From: a virus | Virus record (IMG/VR): IMGVR_UViG_3300045988_010678 | Coordinates: 1-5,679 of that record | Strand: one strand, 5' to 3' | DNA length: 5,679 bases | Part shown: one piece after another, positions 1 through 5,679 of the stretch | Layout: each line of letters opens with the position of its first letter | Numbering within the stretch: the first letter of the stretch is position 1 | Position numbers and translations under genes: made by a program | The notes under the pieces: generated by a model | Told to the model about the DNA's origin: nothing | What the model saw: only the letters and a program-made list of their open reading frames with translations | Databases searched by the model: none

Positions 1-55
1 CGATTCAACAAAATAAAAAACACTCAGCCCAGTATATATACTTGATAGTTACTGG
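1..55. repeat. Terminal direct repeat. Identical to 5625-5679, so this is the overlap of a circularly closed contig with a 5624-nt unit genome.
   Basis: A base-by-base comparison of cgattcaacaaaataaaaaacactcagcccagtatatatacttgatagttactgg at 1-55 and 5625-5679 gives an exact match. The window ends exactly at the end of the repeat. Confidence 0.95.
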
Positions 56-72: not shown

Positions 73-1092
73 CTAAAAAACGCCTTTTGCTTTGGACATC
101 TTCTTCTTCATGATTGCTTCTTTATCGGCCAGTTGTTCGGCATACTGTTTGTCAGTTTCCATGTTTCTTTCGATTAGGGATGCAATGGCTTTTTCTTGTC
201 GATACTGCTTGATTCTCCACGCCTTTTCAGGATTTTCAGCTTCCAGCTTTCGCCAATAATATTCTGGAATGGCTGCTCTCTTTCCGTTTGCCAGCTGGAT
301 ATATCCAAGTTGCCAGAGCCTTTCTTGGTGCTCTTGAAACCATGCGTCTCCGAGTCCTGGCTTTCGGCTCATCACGCAGAATGGCGGTCTGAGTCCCATT
401 TTCTTGTACTTGTCTTTGTCGTTTCCGTACAGCTTCTTGGTCACATACCCAGCTACGTAGTTATACGTTTCCGGCGTTGCTTGAGCTATATCTACTGTTC
501 CTTGTCCCCAGACTTTGACCAGTTTATCGCTCGTGTAGTGTCCAAACCTTGACAGTCTGTGAATCGGCTTTAAGTCGTCTGGATTCCACCCGTACAATAT
601 CATGTGATAGTGTGGTCTTGAGGTGTTGTCTCCATACTCTCCCGCTAGAAAGTACCTGAGAGGCCCGCTGACAGTCTTCCTGAGCCTTTTCATGAATAGC
701 TGTATATCTTCCACGCTTAAGGTTTGCACCGTTCTGGGACGCTCTGAGGCGTCTTTCCAGACGTTCACGCCTCCCTTGAAGATTTCCCCTGTTTCCGTGT
801 CCTGTGTTGGCACATGGTCGTCATCATAGGTTAGTGTGATGAACCAGATGCTTTCCTCGTTGTGACTGTATGCTTCTAGTTCCATTCTTGTGGCCCAATC
901 CTTGCGCTTGCGCAGTTTGCATCCTGTGCATTGTCCACATGGAATCATCATTACGTCTTTGCGGTACATCAAGTCTTCATACCGCATTTTGGTCTTATGT
1001 ATCTTGTTAAAAGAAGCGAGTGAGTATACTCGCCCACTCGCTTCTCTGTCGTGAGGTACATAAAACCGGATTAACGGTTTATTGCATCCCAT
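73..1092 (-). CDS. VP4: Replication initiator protein VP4 (HUH rolling-circle endonuclease, Microviridae gene A/VP4 family)
   Basis: 339-aa ORF with an ATG start. It carries RCR motif I FITLTY, motif II HUH as PHYHMILYG, and motif III with paired Tyr as YNYVAGYVTKK. It also has the N-terminal Cys cluster PCGQCTGCKLRKRKDWATR typical of gokushovirus VP4. The start follows the VP2 stop directly (TAAATG). Confidence 0.95.
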   Translation of the reverse strand: MGCNKPLIRFYVPHDREASGRVYSLASFNKIHKTKMRYEDLMYRKDVMMIPCGQCTGCKLRKRKDWATRMELEAYSHNEESIWFITLTYDDDHVPTQDTETGEIFKGGVNVWKDASERPRTVQTLSVEDIQLFMKRLRKTVSGPLRYFLAGEYGDNTSRPHYHMILYGWNPDDLKPIHRLSRFGHYTSDKLVKVWGQGTVDIAQATPETYNYVAGYVTKKLYGNDKDKYKKMGLRPPFCVMSRKPGLGDAWFQEHQERLWQLGYIQLANGKRAAIPEYYWRKLEAENPEKAWRIKQYRQEKAIASLIERNMETDKQYAEQLADKEAIMKKKMSKAKGVF

Positions 1093-1941
1093 TTATTTGA
1101 GTTTTCCTTTCCAAAATTCGATGTTTTTGCTTCCGATGAAGTCTCTCCCCGGTTTGTATTCGAGCTCATCTTTCTTCGGTTGTCTCCCTGCTCCTCCGCT
1201 GACACCACTGTTTAGGTTGCTGAGGTCGTTGAAAACGTCTTTGAATGCATTAAACGCTTTGTCTGCGCTTGTGTGTGACCAGCTTGTAGCGTCTCCGACT
1301 GCTTGTGCTGCGTTGTACCAGTTACTTTCGCTTTTGCTCCATGTGTTGTTGTGGTTCTGGCTTACTCCCAGAGCGCTTGCGCTAGCTGCACTGCTGCTTG
1401 CCAGACCCATGCTTGCCCCGCTGATAGTGGCTTGTGCGCCTCCTGGAGTGCTTGCTCCGCCCTGTTGGTATGCTAAGATAGGGTTGATGCCAGCTTTTTT
1501 CATGTCTTCTACAGCTCGCTGATAAGCTGTATCGCTCATTTGCTTTTGCCACGCTCTGGCTTTGGCTGCCTCTGCGCTGTTGTAGGCCATTGCTGCGTTG
1601 TTGCTTATCTGGTTATATACACCCTGAGTGATTGCCGCCATGGTGTTATAGCCCATTTGCTCGAATACGCTTTGACGGTTAAATTTCTGCTGGCTTTGCA
1701 TATTGCTTTGAATTGCCCCTAGCATACTGTTCCAGTCTTGCAGATTTTGTTCTCGGTTTACGCCGCTGGCGGCGCTGCTGTAGCCGCCTCCCTGGCTTGA
1801 ACTTTCGTTGTGCTGTGTGCTCCCTCCGTTGCTCTCCATCAGACTGCCGCCCAACACTTTGTTTATGAGTCCTCCGGCGATCGTCGGGAGTAGTTGTTTG
1901 CCGATTCCGAGTAGTGCGCTGCCGATTGCTGCTAACGCCAT
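1093..1941 (-). CDS. VP2: Minor capsid / DNA pilot protein VP2
   Basis: 282-aa ORF with an ATG start. It has a hydrophobic Gly/Ala/Leu-rich N-terminus (MALAAIGSALLGIGKQLLPTIAGGLINKVLGG) and a Ser/Gly/Gln/Asn-rich low-complexity body. It contains the conserved segment YQRAVEDMKKAGINPILAY, as I recall it from microvirus pilot proteins. It sits between VP1 and VP4, as in gokushoviruses. Confidence 0.85.
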   Translation of the reverse strand: MALAAIGSALLGIGKQLLPTIAGGLINKVLGGSLMESNGGSTQHNESSSQGGGYSSAASGVNREQNLQDWNSMLGAIQSNMQSQQKFNRQSVFEQMGYNTMAAITQGVYNQISNNAAMAYNSAEAAKARAWQKQMSDTAYQRAVEDMKKAGINPILAYQQGGASTPGGAQATISGASMGLASSSAASASALGVSQNHNNTWSKSESNWYNAAQAVGDATSWSHTSADKAFNAFKDVFNDLSNLNSGVSGGAGRQPKKDELEYKPGRDFIGSKNIEFWKGKLK

Positions 1942-1982: not shown

Positions 1983-3662
1983 TTAGTGATGATCTACGAG
2001 TCCAGGAATACTGTACATCGGCATAGGTCTTACAGATGTGTTATCAATGACGGTGTCTATGATAAACTGCGGCTCGTTATCCACGGCCAGAGTCCTCTGG
2101 ATTTCGGAGTCTCCTTCCTTCATCCATGTCTGGCTTAATTTGGGAACTTCCTTGTAGTTGTCGCCGTAGTGCCAGCTGTCCAACGTCCCCGTTGCATTCG
2201 AACGGAACTTGCCGCTGATGCGGTTTGGCTTCATTCGGTACTCTGCCCAGGCTTCCTGATAACCAAAGGCCTGTTCATCTGTGCTCGTACCAGTGAGATA
2301 CAGCTCCTTCTTCAGAATGGCCTGCTCGCCCAGATTTGCGAAGACAGGATAGTAAAAGTCCAAATTGGTCTTGCGACTCCACATACGCTCCAAGCCCTGC
2401 TGGTAGGTATGGTCATGCCGGATGCAGCATACGCCGATAACAAAGCCGTGCTCTTCGAAGCTCTTGGTGAACATGTTCCCGTTGTACGGCGTAACACTGA
2501 TTGCCGCGGCGTTGCCCTGCGGACTTTCTTGCGTCGTGCCGCTGGTCTGGATGACCTGGCTCATGTTGATAGTGATGCGCGTACCGCCCAGGTACTCAGG
2601 AATTTGTACCGTTTTATCGCTGATTTTGGTATGGAACAGCGAATAAATCATCTCGCGGTAACGGCTGCCTCCGCGTGCTAACTGCTCGTAGTACTTTTGC
2701 ACCTGGAATGCCTGTCGCAGCTGGTTGATGGTCGTTGCTGTTACTGCGCTGAGGTCTGTGTAAAGCTTTTGGTCTACTCCTTCGTTTCCCGCTTCGTTGG
2801 ACCCGTAAATGTGCCATGTGTCACCCGAGTTTTCGCCTGTGGTTGTTTTGGGTTCTCCGACTATGGAATAGTTTTTGAAGTATACTGCATTTTCGTCGAT
2901 GACGCTACCGCTGTATGCTCTGATAGGTGCCTTGCCAGTCAGCGGAATGGTTACTGGTTCTCCCGACTTTTGTGGCGAAGGCATTGCGCTTGTGTAATAG
3001 TCGTGGTACTTGTTGACCGGAAGAGGTCTGCCGCCTGTGTATGCGTTCTGGAGAATATACTCCAAGTCCGGTGTTGCTGCGTCCATGCCCTTTGTTTCGT
3101 CGTCCGTGTAGTTTACGGTCGCGTCTGCATCGCTGTTGACGGCTGGATTGTCTACGTTCTGGTCTCGGAACCACTCCTGCCAGATCATGGCGTAGGCTCT
3201 AAACGGCAGTGCGTTAACGCTGAATGCGCTGTCAGTTCCTTTACTCACCTTGGTAGGAATGCCCATGTAGTCCATGATGCTTCCTTCGTACGGTGCCGGT
3301 TTGTCGGTCGAGCCAGTGACTTTGACCTGAGGAATGGTGTACTCCTGAGTCTGTGCCCACGGCTCGGTGTCGTTCTCGCCCATAAACCGCTTGAAGTTTT
3401 TCCAGATGATACGGCACGGTACGTTGAAGTAGTAAATATCCATGTAGCAGTTGTCCATAACTGGGAAGATAGGAGTTGTCATACGGATAATTGCTGCCTG
3501 GTCAATGCTGAAGGTATCGCCGGGTAACACTTCGTCCACATAGAACGGAATGAGCTGGCCTGCGTTCATGGTCAACTTGACGTCCTGCCGCCGTTTGAAG
3601 CGACTTCGCGTAATGTCCAGTCGCGGAACTTGGTTAAAACCTGCGTCTTTGTTCCTGTTCAT
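1983..3662 (-). CDS. VP1: Major capsid protein VP1 (Microviridae F/VP1 family)
   Basis: 559-aa ORF. It shows the N-terminal pattern FNQVPRLDITRSRF...NAGQLIPFYVDEVLPGDTF, the conserved core TINQLRQAFQVQKYYEQLARGGSRYREMIYSLF and a C-terminal PMPMYSIPGLVDHH. The SD sequence AAAGGAGGAA lies 9 nt upstream, and the start overlaps the VP3 stop as ATGA. Confidence 0.97.
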   Translation of the reverse strand: MNRNKDAGFNQVPRLDITRSRFKRRQDVKLTMNAGQLIPFYVDEVLPGDTFSIDQAAIIRMTTPIFPVMDNCYMDIYYFNVPCRIIWKNFKRFMGENDTEPWAQTQEYTIPQVKVTGSTDKPAPYEGSIMDYMGIPTKVSKGTDSAFSVNALPFRAYAMIWQEWFRDQNVDNPAVNSDADATVNYTDDETKGMDAATPDLEYILQNAYTGGRPLPVNKYHDYYTSAMPSPQKSGEPVTIPLTGKAPIRAYSGSVIDENAVYFKNYSIVGEPKTTTGENSGDTWHIYGSNEAGNEGVDQKLYTDLSAVTATTINQLRQAFQVQKYYEQLARGGSRYREMIYSLFHTKISDKTVQIPEYLGGTRITINMSQVIQTSGTTQESPQGNAAAISVTPYNGNMFTKSFEEHGFVIGVCCIRHDHTYQQGLERMWSRKTNLDFYYPVFANLGEQAILKKELYLTGTSTDEQAFGYQEAWAEYRMKPNRISGKFRSNATGTLDSWHYGDNYKEVPKLSQTWMKEGDSEIQRTLAVDNEPQFIIDTVIDNTSVRPMPMYSIPGLVDHH

Positions 3663-4138
3663 TCAGTGGCTTCCTCCTTTTTAGGCTCTTCAGGCTCTTC
3701 TTCCTGATAGATGCCCAGATTTTTTGCCCAGTCAACAGTTCCGAAACTTGCCACGAATTTATCGACGTCATTGTCGAACTTGAGTTTGATTTCCTTTGGG
3801 ATTTCATCCCAGATTTGCTCGGCCCGCAGCATGATGTTCTGAAGCTCCATCAGGTTTTCCGGCATCTCGGTTGCGTCTTGGAGTCCATTACCCATGTCTG
3901 GCACCAGTCTAGCTGCAAGGTCAGGGTCGATGGATGCCCGCCGGAGGATGTTTTCCAGCTTGGTCTCTTCCAGATAGCTGTCGATTTCTGCTTGCTGGTC
4001 GATGGTCTGGTCAAGCGTCAGCACTTTTTCGCCCTTCTTGTTGATTTGCCAAAGGTATGTCCGTCTGATGCTTTCTCCGGCTTCAGTGGCCTTTGCTGTT
4101 GCGGTTTCCCTGAAGTTACTTACTGAGCGATACGCCAT
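3659..4138 (-). CDS. VP3: Internal scaffolding protein VP3. The start is placed at the ATG at 4138, not the TTG at 4186 used by the ORF track.
   Basis: The ORF is in the gokushovirus VP3 position immediately upstream of VP1. The motif IPKEIKLKFDNDVDKFVASF resembles the conserved VP3 C-proximal motif, and the tail is acidic (YQEEEPEEPKKEEATE). The track start codon at 4184-4186 is TTG with no SD, whereas the ATG at 4136-4138 is preceded by AAGGAG with a 10-nt spacer. This gives a 159-aa product. Confidence 0.85.
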   Translation of the reverse strand: MAYRSVSNFRETATAKATEAGESIRRTYLWQINKKGEKVLTLDQTIDQQAEIDSYLEETKLENILRRASIDPDLAARLVPDMGNGLQDATEMPENLMELQNIMLRAEQIWDEIPKEIKLKFDNDVDKFVASFGTVDWAKNLGIYQEEEPEEPKKEEATE

Positions 4139-4352
4139 CGAAGATGTTCTCCTTTTCGTTCTCAAACAGGCCCGTTTTCTCGTCAAACTCTGCCAGGCGC
4201 ACTAACCGATAGTCGCTCGGAGTCTTGCTCATGATGTTCCGTTCATCAGTCAGCGCGATTTTGAAATTGCGTTCGGCCACTTTGTCGTCACGTTCGGTAA
4301 AGATGGTGATGTAACCCATCACGCATTTGTCGAAGATTCCGTATACGTTCAT
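4116..4352 (-). CDS. Small non-structural protein, VP5-like (product assignment from recollected family pattern only)
   Basis: 78-aa ORF with an ATG start, preceded by TAAGGAG and an 8-nt spacer. The pattern M.VY.IFD......I....D..A.R.F...........P.DY.L..L..FD..TG matches my memory of the gokushovirus ORF5/VP5 family. It lies just upstream of VP3, as VP5 does, and overlaps the VP3 start by 23 nt. Confidence 0.7.
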   Translation of the reverse strand: MNVYGIFDKCVMGYITIFTERDDKVAERNFKIALTDERNIMSKTPSDYRLVRLAEFDEKTGLFENEKENIFDGVSLSK

Positions 4353-4562: not shown

Positions 4563-4790
4563 TTACTCCTCTTTGCCACGGTTGATGTCCCTTCTGAGGA
4601 TTTCTACCTCAATTTCGTTCGCTGCCGCTTTTTTTCTAAACGCAAGGTCAACGTAATATTTTGCGTCTTCGATTGTTGCGGCCTTTCGAATCATACTGTA
4701 TGCGGCATCTATTGTCTTGTAGGTTTTCGTCAATTCCTGCATAAGGTTCTCGTCGGTCTGGTCTCTTACATTCCATGTTTTGTTCTCCAT
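4563..4790 (-). CDS. Hypothetical 75-aa protein (ORFan, predicted helical, charged)
   Basis: ATG start preceded by GGAGG with a 6-nt spacer. It is co-directional and tightly packed with its neighbours. I recognise no motif. Confidence 0.7.
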   Translation of the reverse strand: MENKTWNVRDQTDENLMQELTKTYKTIDAAYSMIRKAATIEDAKYYVDLAFRKKAAANEIEVEILRRDINRGKEE

Positions 4791-4984: not shown

Positions 4985-5015
4985 AAAAAAAAGGGGGATT
5001 GTCAACCCCCTTTTT
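4985..5015 (-). terminator. Rho-independent (potentially bidirectional) terminator ending the Cys-rich gene cassette
   Basis: The structure is A8 (4985-4992), GGGGG (4993-4997), an 8-nt loop, CCCCC (5006-5010) and T5 (5011-5015). On the minus strand the hairpin is followed by T8. The gene's stop codon (5002-5004) lies in the loop. Confidence 0.75.
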
Positions 5016-5184
5016 CCGGTCTTTTATTTCGTTCGTCGAGTTCCTTTTTGATTTCTTCGTATACGTATCTGCAACGTTTTCCTTCGACTTTGCATGGGCA
5101 GCTCTCACAATCCCCTTCACAATATTCGTATCTGTACTTCATGTAGATTAACTGTTTGTTACTTGTAAACCGTAAACTAGTCAT
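5002..5184 (-). CDS. 60-aa cysteine-rich hypothetical protein (C-x3-C-x2-C-x-C-x6-C, basic/acidic helical tail)
   Basis: ATG start preceded by AAGGAG with a 7-nt spacer. The sequence is MTSLRFTSNKQLIYMKYRYEYCEGDCESCPCKVEGKRCRYVYEEIKKELDERNKRPEKGG. The gene has its own upstream promoter candidate and its own downstream terminator. Confidence 0.75.
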   Translation of the reverse strand: MTSLRFTSNKQLIYMKYRYEYCEGDCESCPCKVEGKRCRYVYEEIKKELDERNKRPEKGG

Positions 5185-5214
5185 ATTGGTTCTCCTTTAC
5201 TGTGAAGCAGCTTG

Positions 5215-5243
5215 ATTGTACCGTATTTTTAGAAGAAAGTCGA
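5215..5243 (-). promoter_or_regulatory. Putative sigma70-type promoter for the Cys-rich gene
   Basis: On the minus strand: TCGACT (complement of 5238-5243), a 17-nt spacer, then TACAAT (complement of 5215-5220). The -10 element lies about 30 nt upstream of the ATG at 5184. Confidence 0.4.
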
Positions 5244-5284
5244 GATTTTTTTGAAAAAAAGTTAGAAGAATTTTGCATTGAAGG

Positions 5285-5322
5285 TCATGCGCTAGGCGCG
5301 GTGCGCCGTACGAAGAGCATGA
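5285..5322. repeat. GC-rich nested inverted repeat in the non-coding region
   Basis: The outer arms are tcatgc (5285-5290) and gcatga (5317-5322). The inner hairpin is ggcgc (5295-5299) pairing with gcgcc (5303-5307), with a 3-nt loop. Confidence 0.6.
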
Positions 5323-5360
5323 TGTAACTTTCCGGCCAGCTGCCGAACTGCCTCTAATTG

Positions 5361-5538
5361 AGTTTTCAACACTTTCAACACTTTCAACAGGTTTTCCACA
5401 AAAAGTTGCACAAATGGTTTTGTGCATATTGCTACACTTTCAACAATTCAACAAGTTTTCAACAAAGTTTTCAACATCAAAATGATTCATAAAATATTGT
5501 TCCATGGATAAAAATTTATAGTTTTCAACATTTCAACA
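5361..5538 (+). repeat. Iteron-like array of nine same-orientation TTCAACA copies, with a tenth at 5628-5634 (equivalent to 4-10)
   Basis: TTCAACA starts at 5365, 5374, 5383, 5439, 5447, 5458, 5470, 5524 and 5532. There is a perfect 9-nt tandem tttcaacac/tttcaacac/tttcaacag at 5364-5390. The 11-mer AGTTTTCAACA occurs at 5361, 5454, 5466 and 5520. The variant GGTTTTCCACA is at 5390-5400. Confidence 0.9.
5407..5426. other. Small perfect hairpin within the iteron region
   Basis: tgcacaaa (5407-5414) pairs with tttgtgca (5419-5426), with a 4-nt loop tggt. Confidence 0.6.
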
Positions 5539-5583
5539 CTCCCTACTACTGCTACTACAACAAGTAAATAATAAAATAATAAA

Positions 5584-5629
5584 AATCGTTCGTGCGCGTG
5601 CGCGATTTCGTGCGCGTGCGCGAACGATT
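5584..5629. repeat. GC-rich composite element: a tandem 17-nt direct repeat that also forms an imperfect 21-position inverted repeat
   Basis: ttcgtgcgcgtgcgcga occurs at 5589-5605 and 5607-5623. Each copy contains (CGTGCG)2CG, which is strictly alternating pyrimidine/purine. The outer arms aatcgttcg (5584-5592) and cgaacgatt (5621-5629) are perfectly complementary. The element is flanked by AT-rich tracts at 5562-5583 and 5631-5644. Confidence 0.9.
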
Positions 5630-5679
5630 CAACAAAATAAAAAACACTCAGCCCAGTATATATACTTGATAGTTACTGG
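5625..5679. repeat. Second copy of the terminal overlap (identical to 1-55)
   Basis: Exact 55/55 identity with the window start. Confidence 0.95.

Follow-up and report, generated by a model that had tools for sequence, protein, structure and literature searches.

A DnaA-box and DnaA-trio cassette resembling a bacterial origin-unwinding module in a gut gokushovirus genome

Microviridae are thought to depend on an HUH replication protein (Rep) and on host fork proteins. The 5679-nt stretch of DNA analysed here (the window; IMG/VR record IMGVR_UViG_3300045988_010678) is a complete circular genome of a gokushovirus, a member of this family, and it raises the question of what a dense array of repeats resembling binding boxes of the bacterial initiator DnaA is doing in its ~550-nt non-coding region, which is flanked by small open reading frames (ORFs) on one side and by the VP4 stop on the other. 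An earlier reading made from the letters alone (the sequence-only reading) had proposed that a hairpin among these repeats presents a DnaA box on single-stranded DNA (ssDNA). That reading overlooked the trinucleotide repeat and AT-rich tract at 5543-5586, and the answer proposed here is a different one: positions 5363-5586 probably constitute a phage-borne, host-type origin-unwinding cassette that would work in a DnaA-dependent manner on the double-stranded replicative form.

The core of the cassette (5522-5586) reads, on the + strand, TTTTCAACA, TTTCAACA, CTCC, CTA CTA CTG CTA CTA, CAACAAG and TAAATAATAAAATAATAAAAAT. This is the arrangement of the basal unwinding system (BUS) of oriC, which Richardson reportedly described in 2016 and 2019 as DnaA boxes 6/7, DnaA-trios and an AT-rich region. 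The published BUS rules call for a DnaA box with no more than 2 mismatches to the consensus or to a species-specific motif, usually in a same-orientation tandem pair (the second box is optional and may carry up to 4 mismatches), a spacer of 0-16 nt (commonly 12-13) from the first box to the first trio that includes a ~4-nt G/C-rich gap, and at least 3 consecutive trios (3'-NAN-5', consensus 3'-GAT-5') on the strand opposite 5'-TTATCCACA-3', with the trios box-proximal and the AT-rich region distal. Exactly one site in the window conforms, with a spacer of 12 and five trios of which four are perfect 3'-GAT-5', and no such site arose in 2000 dinucleotide-preserving shuffles of the window. The first box of the pair (TTTTCAACA, 5522-5530) has 2 mismatches to TTATCCACA and none to the Oscillospirales word described below, while the second (ATTTCAACA) has 3. 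The top strand over the trios carries four 5'-TnnT-3' motifs of the DnaD recognition element (DRE) type, and 5564-5586 is 96 % A+T. The cassette thus has the box, spacer, trios and AT-rich region of a BUS, yet it lies between VP4 and the small-ORF/VP5 block of a gokushovirus genome rather than in a chromosomal origin by dnaA/dnaN, so that it is predicted to be BUS-like in its working without being a chromosomal oriC.

The layout of the phage core is that of B. subtilis, S. aureus and Listeria, with an 8-nt box offset, a 4-nt G/C gap and a spacer of 12. In Table S1 of Pelliciari et al. the B. subtilis origin runs TTATCCACA, AATCCACA, GGCC, CTACTATTACTTCTACTA and an AT-rich region (trio stretch CTACTATTA...), and that of S. 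aureus TTATCCACC, AATCCACA, GCAC, CTACTACTATTACTA; the C. difficile trio element is CACCTACTACTATTACTACTA. In the published orientation the boxes read 5'-TTATCCACA-3' on the strand that carries 5'-CTA-3', and the trios bound by DnaA are on the other strand. The phage cassette further shares with the oriC BUS, especially that of Bacillota dnaA-dnaN regions (incC/oriC2; Pelliciari 2021), at least three bottom-strand 3'-GAT-5' trios followed by an AT-rich tract, upstream box arrays, TnnT motifs on the top strand and the box dialect of Oscillospiraceae/Ruminococcus origins. It differs in its setting, a 5.6-kb ssDNA phage with a rolling-circle Rep, in its compactness (~210 nt), in having all of its boxes point one way, in a conserved phage-specific CTACAACAAG tail, and in being mobile and invertible.

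Upstream of the core the boxes form two clusters. TTCAACA occurs 12 times in the window where 1.09 copies are expected, a number reached in 0/200 shuffles. The + strand holds eleven of the copies, ten distinct (5365-5634) and the eleventh (4-10) an assembly duplicate: positions 1-55 are identical to 5625-5679, a 55-nt terminal redundancy from assembly of the circle, which gives the genome a unit length of 5624 nt and makes the TTCAACA sites at 4-10 and 5628-5634 a single copy. Counted as 9-mers, 11 boxes (TTTTCAACA variants and one exact TTTTCCACA) lie on the + strand and none in reverse, where the sequence-only reading had put the number at nine. That reading was right about the four copies of AGTTTTCAACA (ending at 5371, 5464, 5476 and 5530) and about the exact relaxed DnaA box TTTTCCACA at 5392-5400, although by itself this box is at chance level (0.49 matches to TTWTNCACA expected per window, at least one in 85/200 shuffles). 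Its suggestion that the iterons are relatives of DnaA boxes is supported by two sequence comparisons given below, the alternation of box types at homologous positions in related phages and the rank of TTTTCAACA as top 9-mer in bacterial origins. By-eye comparison only with XerCD/dif-like, LexA (Cheo) and CodY boxes gave no convincing match.

Conservation and independence from Rep

Matches to the non-coding region occur in 49 phage records of GenBank, each a gut gokushovirus, from faeces of human, pig, monkey, dog, lemur and other hosts; in several, the megablast match is limited to 5362-5477. All of the 14 relatives that were read keep the same order, namely box cluster A, a variable spacer, cluster B, an AT-rich spacer, the box pair, a 3-4-nt G/C gap, CTACTACTACnnCTACAACAAG and the AT-rich tract. 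Individual boxes at homologous positions switch between TTCAACA and TCCACA, the proximal box being an exact TTTTCCACA in five relatives and the box at 5392 being TTTTCAACA in four others. Over 147 unique cassettes, position 6 of the box is A in 1034 instances, C in 179, T in 4 and G in 5. The two prevailing variants are the same two as in bacterial origins, which excludes Spo0A boxes; an array of these (TGTCGAA, as in phi29) had been considered, and its reverse complement needs the G at position 6 that is found in only 5 of 1222 boxes.

A pattern search of IMG/VR returned 120 loci, 90 of them gokushoviruses whose VP1 and VP4 are 37-86 % and 29-94 % identical to those of the window. The remaining 30, mostly single-box matches without the pair in apparently ordinary coding contexts, serve as a negative control. 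Columns covered by the pattern are conserved by construction in pattern-selected sets, and the key counts were therefore redone on sets selected by homology. Among genomes selected by VP1 homology the cassette is present in 58/63 close and 29/37 more distant relatives, as against 0/740 shuffled genomes. Many relatives escape a BUS scan that uses the E. coli consensus alone, as their boxes carry 3 mismatches, and a dialect motif is needed, as in DoriC and in Pelliciari for divergent species. The boxes point toward the trios in 98 % of cases (777 forward versus 13 reverse) and number 8.5 per genome on average; the A+T content at +23 to +52 averages 71 % (91 genomes).

Of 45 unique cores selected by homology, 43 have a gap of 4 nt; in the whole set trio 1 is invariably CTA, and the central top-strand base of trios 1-3 and 5 is T in 179 of 180 instances. 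The fourth trio is variable (central T in 17, G in 28), and on the trio strand the central base is A or C throughout, never G or T. Published biochemistry found trios 1-3 both necessary and sufficient; in place of the central adenine cytosine works, whereas G, T and U do not. The natural variation of the phage trios agrees with this and would be hard to explain unless DnaA reads the trio strand.

The cassette is independent of Rep in both sequence and position. TTCAACA dominates in every class of VP4 identity from <40 % to >70 %, and the boxes do not co-vary with VP4; in one relative (L138) VP4 and VP1 are 44 % and 50 % identical to those of the window, yet the 217-nt cassette retains 92 % nucleotide identity. 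In an alignment of L009 with L010 (602-812) the ~210-nt core aligns plus/plus and the flanks on either side plus/minus, meaning that the cassette has inverted in situ in genomes that are otherwise collinear. In one or more other lineages (compare L007 and L011) it lies between VP2 and VP4 instead of after VP4. The BUS is oriented opposite to the genes in 80 genomes and in the same direction in 10, spread over several VP1 classes. Judged from these comparisons the cassette behaves as a recombining, mobile module, and its inversion and two positions would fit a self-contained element acting on duplex DNA. VP4 itself retains the rolling-circle motifs FITLTYD, HYHMILYG and YVAGYVTKK, so that the cassette is an addition to Rep and not a replacement for it.

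Box dialect of bacterial origins

A phage-derived pattern, TTTCMACANNNNCTACTACTA, was used to scan bacteria, with one genome per species, and found more than 120 loci. Most among the matches listed are genuine origins with box pair, gap, trios and AT-rich tract, and the C-terminal signature of DnaA is encoded 200-1000 nt upstream of them; Streptomyces, cyanobacteria, Acidobacteriota and many gut Clostridia are represented. In three gut metagenome-assembled genomes (MAGs), two of Oscillospiraceae (L035, L057) and one of Ruminococcus (L049), the site follows a Pfam-confirmed dnaA; the next ORF downstream is a Pfam-confirmed dnaN in L035 and L057, and the 8-kb stretch fetched for L049 ends before the downstream gene. 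When aligned, the phage BUS is in register with these three origins, whose spacers are dense with gttTTCAACA boxes intermixed with gttTTCCACA. When six Oscillospirales-type dnaA-dnaN spacers are pooled, the top 9-mers are TTTTCAACA (32), GTTTTCAAC (28), AGTTTTCAA (24) and TTTTCCACA (16), and GTTTTCAAC and AGTTTTCAA are shifted forms of TTTTCAACA which together with it make up the 11-mer of the phage itself, AGTTTTCAACA. The Ruminococcus origin holds 23 TTCAACA versus 9 T[CT]CACA and includes an array of the cluster-B kind (agttTTCAACAagttTTCAACA...). Since TTTTCAACA is the commonest 9-mer in the dnaA-dnaN origins of gut Oscillospiraceae/Ruminococcus, the likely host clade, a box with A at position 6 is a native origin word there and no weak relative. 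The comparison with host-clade oriC that the sequence-only reading had asked for thus bears out the kinship of iterons and DnaA boxes.

The dialect has a possible counterpart in the protein. Helix 5 of DnaA reads DHST[VI]xY in L035, L049, L057, L018, L067 and L114, as against DHTTVxH in E. coli and B. subtilis, which amounts to T435S and H439Y (E. coli numbering) at two residues that contact bases. The TTCAACA fraction is 0.31-0.63 with the DHST[VI]xY signature versus 0.01 with canonical DnaA, in a small sample that is uncorrected for kinship and has exceptions (L113, L123). Possibly, Oscillospirales use a DnaA-box dialect with A at position 6 that is perhaps tied to Ser/Tyr at the T435/H439 equivalents.

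A recent capture of the cassette from a host origin was considered and rejected, as blastn matches are at motif level only (36-69 nt), and a search of 72,556 plasmids gave no plasmid relatives of the cassette. Similar arrangements occur elsewhere. A Mesoaciditoga sp. MAG (L100) has 11 TTCAACA boxes and a BUS (TTTTCAACACTTTCAACAGTACCTACTACTACTA) at ~2470-2800, adjoining not dnaA but an ORF that is GroEL-like by its N-terminal sequence, and the A-at-position-6 dialect is thus not limited to Oscillospirales. Non-microvirus IMG/VR contigs of 13-38 kb (L169:3682, L250:~9822, L192/L216, L249) carry BUS-like sites with box pairs such as ATTTCCACATTTCCACAGGCACTACTACTACTAC, the L169 site upstream of a Prim-Pol/PriCT_1 gene and the L250 site at an HTH_36 ORF, and going by these sites DnaA-trio origins may exist in other phages too.

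Predicted mechanism and alternatives

In the proposed mechanism, host DnaA-ATP would bind the unidirectional box arrays (TTTTCAACA/TTTTCCACA) on the double-stranded replicative form, oligomerise from the 5522-5538 pair over the 4-nt gap onto the bottom-strand trios (5543-5557) and melt the adjoining AT-rich tract (5558-5586; AT run 5565-5586), and the melted region would serve as entry site for the host helicase loaders (DnaD/DnaB/DnaI-DnaC in Bacillota). The outcome would be DnaA-dependent initiation on the replicative form besides VP4-driven rolling-circle replication. We infer the DnaA binding, unwinding and helicase loading from the architecture, as we do their use, which might be theta-type amplification, maintenance of the replicative form or help to Rep. 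That the cassette is a true firing origin is a more tentative proposition, on balance leaning slightly to the doubtful side. Somewhat more doubtful still is the broadest version, in which gut gokushoviruses across a large clade possess a working mini-oriC fired by DnaA and the replicative form is a host-controlled minichromosome that replicates in theta mode, timed by DnaA-ATP. If it holds, these phages would have a plasmid-like carrier state that requires no integrase, while Rep-driven rolling circles supply progeny ssDNA, and the cassette would be a host tag readable from sequence, because its box dialect matches the host origin.

The cassette would, to our knowledge, be the first natural virus-borne DnaA-box/DnaA-trio origin; full-text searches of the paper library used found no paper connecting Microviridae or gokushoviruses with DnaA boxes or DnaA-trios. 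It bears on how gokushovirus DNA synthesis starts and on the years-long persistence of gut microviruses, and a second, DnaA-dependent mode of replication or persistence could be tested on a DNA fragment of ~230 bp. It also offers a compact natural BUS whose natural variation mirrors the biochemistry of the trios, and, from sequence, a pointer to the host (Oscillospiraceae/Ruminococcus) of abundant gut phages for which none is in culture.

Several points weigh against the unwinding-cassette reading. The A at box position 6 breaks the E. coli/B. subtilis consensus TTWTNCACA, and the case is built from sequence, with binding of DnaA to TTTTCAACA a prediction. With an intact rolling-circle Rep a second initiation system is not obviously needed, and four full-length relatives (L256, L281, L302, L323) are without the cassette, which is therefore not essential for the clade. 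The orientation bias of 80 versus 10 could mean a strand-specific rather than a purely duplex role. The IMG/VR matches come largely from one dataset, and the similarity between phage and bacterial origins is one of motifs rather than of demonstrated common descent. The suggested host, gut Oscillospiraceae/Ruminococcus, is assigned from origin similarity and gut provenance only, and a second lineage with TTCAACA arrays (Mesoaciditoga, L100) weakens the assignment.

Among the alternatives, the cassette could bind DnaA without firing, as a sink that titrates DnaA (perhaps DnaD) or as a switch that couples early transcription to DnaA-ATP. DnaA-box clusters are titration or regulatory sites in bacteria (datA, B. 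subtilis clusters), and this precedent gains in appeal from the 8-11 boxes per genome on a multicopy replicative form and from their place upstream of the leftward gene block, where there is a weak promoter-like site (5243-5215). Titration, however, needs none of the exact BUS register, the A/C-only central base and the AT-rich tract, all of which are conserved, and although titration loci such as E. coli datA and the B. subtilis clusters likewise lie outside oriC, we know of none that combines a DNA unwinding element (DUE) with trios in BUS register. Control of a promoter is hard to square with the two orientations and two positions relative to the genes, and the promoter/terminator scan of the window did not rise above shuffles (3 promoters found versus 1.9 expected), which leaves a sink or switch unlikely. 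If, as in the origins of plasmids, geminiviruses and CRESS viruses, the repeats were iterons, here for a phage protein (the VP4 Rep or some small accessory protein), their likeness to DnaA boxes would be a coincidence. Direct repeats by a Rep nick hairpin are typical of Rep-binding iterons, such repeats are found here near the putative nick hairpin, and a conserved 75-aa ORF is nearby; but over a VP4 identity range of 29-94 % the boxes show no co-variation with VP4, neither VP4 nor the hairpin goes along when the cassette moves or inverts, the same words and BUS geometry recur in chromosomal dnaA-dnaN origins, and Spo0A boxes are likewise excluded (G at position 6 in 5/1222), so that we consider this highly unlikely. 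In the theta origins of P1 (oriR), pSC101, RK2 and F the iterons bind the plasmid Rep and DnaA is auxiliary; these compact plasmid and phage origins share repeats, DnaA box(es) and an AT-rich region with the cassette, in which by contrast the repeats themselves are predicted DnaA boxes, trios are present and no theta initiator gene is encoded.

The other two alternatives place the signal in ssDNA. The trio strand of packaged ssDNA might recruit DnaA, or its TnnT complement DnaD, for primosome assembly and complementary-strand synthesis, in line with the bias in orientation (80/90) and with the finding that the complement of the trio strand is bound by DnaD in single-stranded form and that DnaD binding promotes helicase loading at single-strand origins. 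Against this, the orientation is reversed in at least 3 lineages, loading of DnaA on trios needs duplex boxes in cis, which direct repeats cannot form by pairing in ssDNA, and stronger ssDNA structures adjoin the cassette (21-63, z = -7.6; 5584-5629, z = -3.8), making such a role improbable. The complementary-strand origins of phiX174, G4 and M13 (PriA n'-site, DnaG hairpins and RNA polymerase hairpin) are read at the single-strand stage; phages of the same family or lifestyle, they too recruit host replication proteins, whereas the cassette has the anatomy of a duplex unwinding site. The sequence-only reading had proposed instead that a DnaA box on the hairpin at 5407-5426 is an A-site for ABC primosome assembly. 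In the A-site reportedly described by Masai and Arai, which like the present proposal combines DnaA with an ssDNA replicon, the box is duplex within the hairpin stem. The hairpin here is real, a perfect 8-bp inverted repeat (TGCACAAA/TTTGTGCA, 5407-5414/5419-5426) 6 nt past the exact box, and its right arm and flank (TGTGCATAT) do match TGTGGATAA at 7/9 positions. That best match lies partly outside the stem, however, which contains no box, and the neighbouring exact box is by itself unremarkable. As ssDNA the hairpin folds at -9.1 kcal/mol (z = -1.9), a value equalled by 12/200 shuffles. At the homologous spacer it is absent from L003, L005, L007 and L008, weak in L006 and replaced by an unrelated palindrome in L011; it also scores as a weak, non-conserved terminator-like site on the - strand. 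A hairpin this weak and this poorly conserved leaves the A-site proposal unsupported and, with boxes that are direct repeats, very improbable indeed. The hairpin is probably outside the core mechanism, and the conserved architecture of boxes, DnaA-trios and DUE is better read as a predicted module for unwinding duplex DNA than as a hairpin signal.

Genomic setting and neighbouring structures

All recognisable genes of the window are on the - strand; their positions and those of the cassette elements are collected in Table 1. The + strand is rich in T (A 19 %, T 33 %). Of the 120 IMG/VR loci searched (90 of them gokushoviruses), 67 have kept the 75-aa ORF, which has no Pfam or PHROG family, while a 60-aa Cys-rich ORF adjoining the cassette was found in only 3 of the 120. 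A coding role was rejected for the two ORFs that overlap the cassette, 5197-5427 (-) and 5358-5492 (+): variable columns by codon position number 33/27/32 with no third-position bias, indels are not multiples of 3, and the tblastn matches of these ORFs arise because the DNA itself is conserved. An Rfam scan of the whole window at E <= 1 gave two sub-threshold chance matches, both outside the cassette, and no family for the cassette.

Table 1. Positions of the cassette elements, adjoining structures and genes in the 5679-nt window
Feature	Position	Strand	Remarks
DnaA-box cluster A, four tandem boxes	5363-5400	+	TTTTCAACA 5363-5371, CTTTCAACA 5372-5380, CTTTCAACA 5381-5389, TTTTCCACA 5392-5400
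8-bp hairpin	5407-5426		TGCACAAA/TTTGTGCA; in spacer between clusters A and B
DnaA-box cluster B, four boxes	5437-5476	+	CTTTCAACA 5437-5445, AATTCAACA 5445-5453, TTTTCAACA 5456-5464, TTTTCAACA 5468-5476
AT-rich spacer, cluster B to proximal box pair	5477-5521		sequence variable among relatives
BUS tandem box pair	5522-5538	+	TTTTCAACA 5522-5530, (A)TTTCAACA 5530-5538; starts 8 nt apart, as B. subtilis boxes 6/7
G/C-rich 4-nt gap, proximal box to first trio	5539-5542	+	CTCC; GGCC, GCAC, GCGC in Firmicutes
Five DnaA-trios	5543-5557	-	bottom 3'-GAT GAT GAC GAT GAT-5'; top CTA CTA CTG CTA CTA
Predicted DUE	5558-5586		conserved CAACAAG, then A+T tract (GTAAATAATAAAATAATAAAAAT)
G/C-rich alternating purine-pyrimidine palindrome and direct repeat	5584-5629		TTCGTGCGCGTGCGCGA x2; -21.6 kcal/mol, z = -3.8
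Solitary weak box	5626-5634	+	GATTCAACA; duplicated at 2-10 through terminal redundancy
14-bp stem-loop just past VP4 stop	21-63 (loop 35-49)		loop TATATACTTGATAGT; phiX174-ori-like CTTGATA 41-47 (+)
VP4/Rep	73-1092	-	
VP2	1093-1941	-	
VP1	1983-3662	-	
VP3	3659-4186	-	
VP5-like	4116-4352	-	
Small ORFs	4563-4790 and 5002-5184	-	75 aa and 60 aa

The stem-loop just past the VP4 stop folds at -16.5 kcal/mol. Its stems co-vary among relatives and its loop is conserved as ACTTGATAG; the 8-mer ACTTGATA is common to the loop and the phiX174 origin CAACTTG^ATATT. The CTTGATA motif is antisense to the genes in 81/90 genomes and on the sense strand in 7 genomes from two divergent lineages, where in the L190 group it lies inside the VP4 match. 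The stem-loop is likely the nick hairpin of Rep (VP4), a neighbour of the cassette and no part of it. Most relatives have a version of the palindrome at 5584-5629, placed between AT-rich tract and VP4-side hairpin, and it stays on the VP4 side when the cassette inverts; it could be a complementary-strand origin or a cruciform. These two structures are better candidates for signals of the single-strand stage than the hairpin at 5407-5426. Upstream of the cassette, a G/C-rich imperfect hairpin at 5285-5322 (TCATGCGCT...AGAGCATGA) folds weakly (z = -1.8), and its sequence is kept in the closer relatives L001-L005, L013 and L014.

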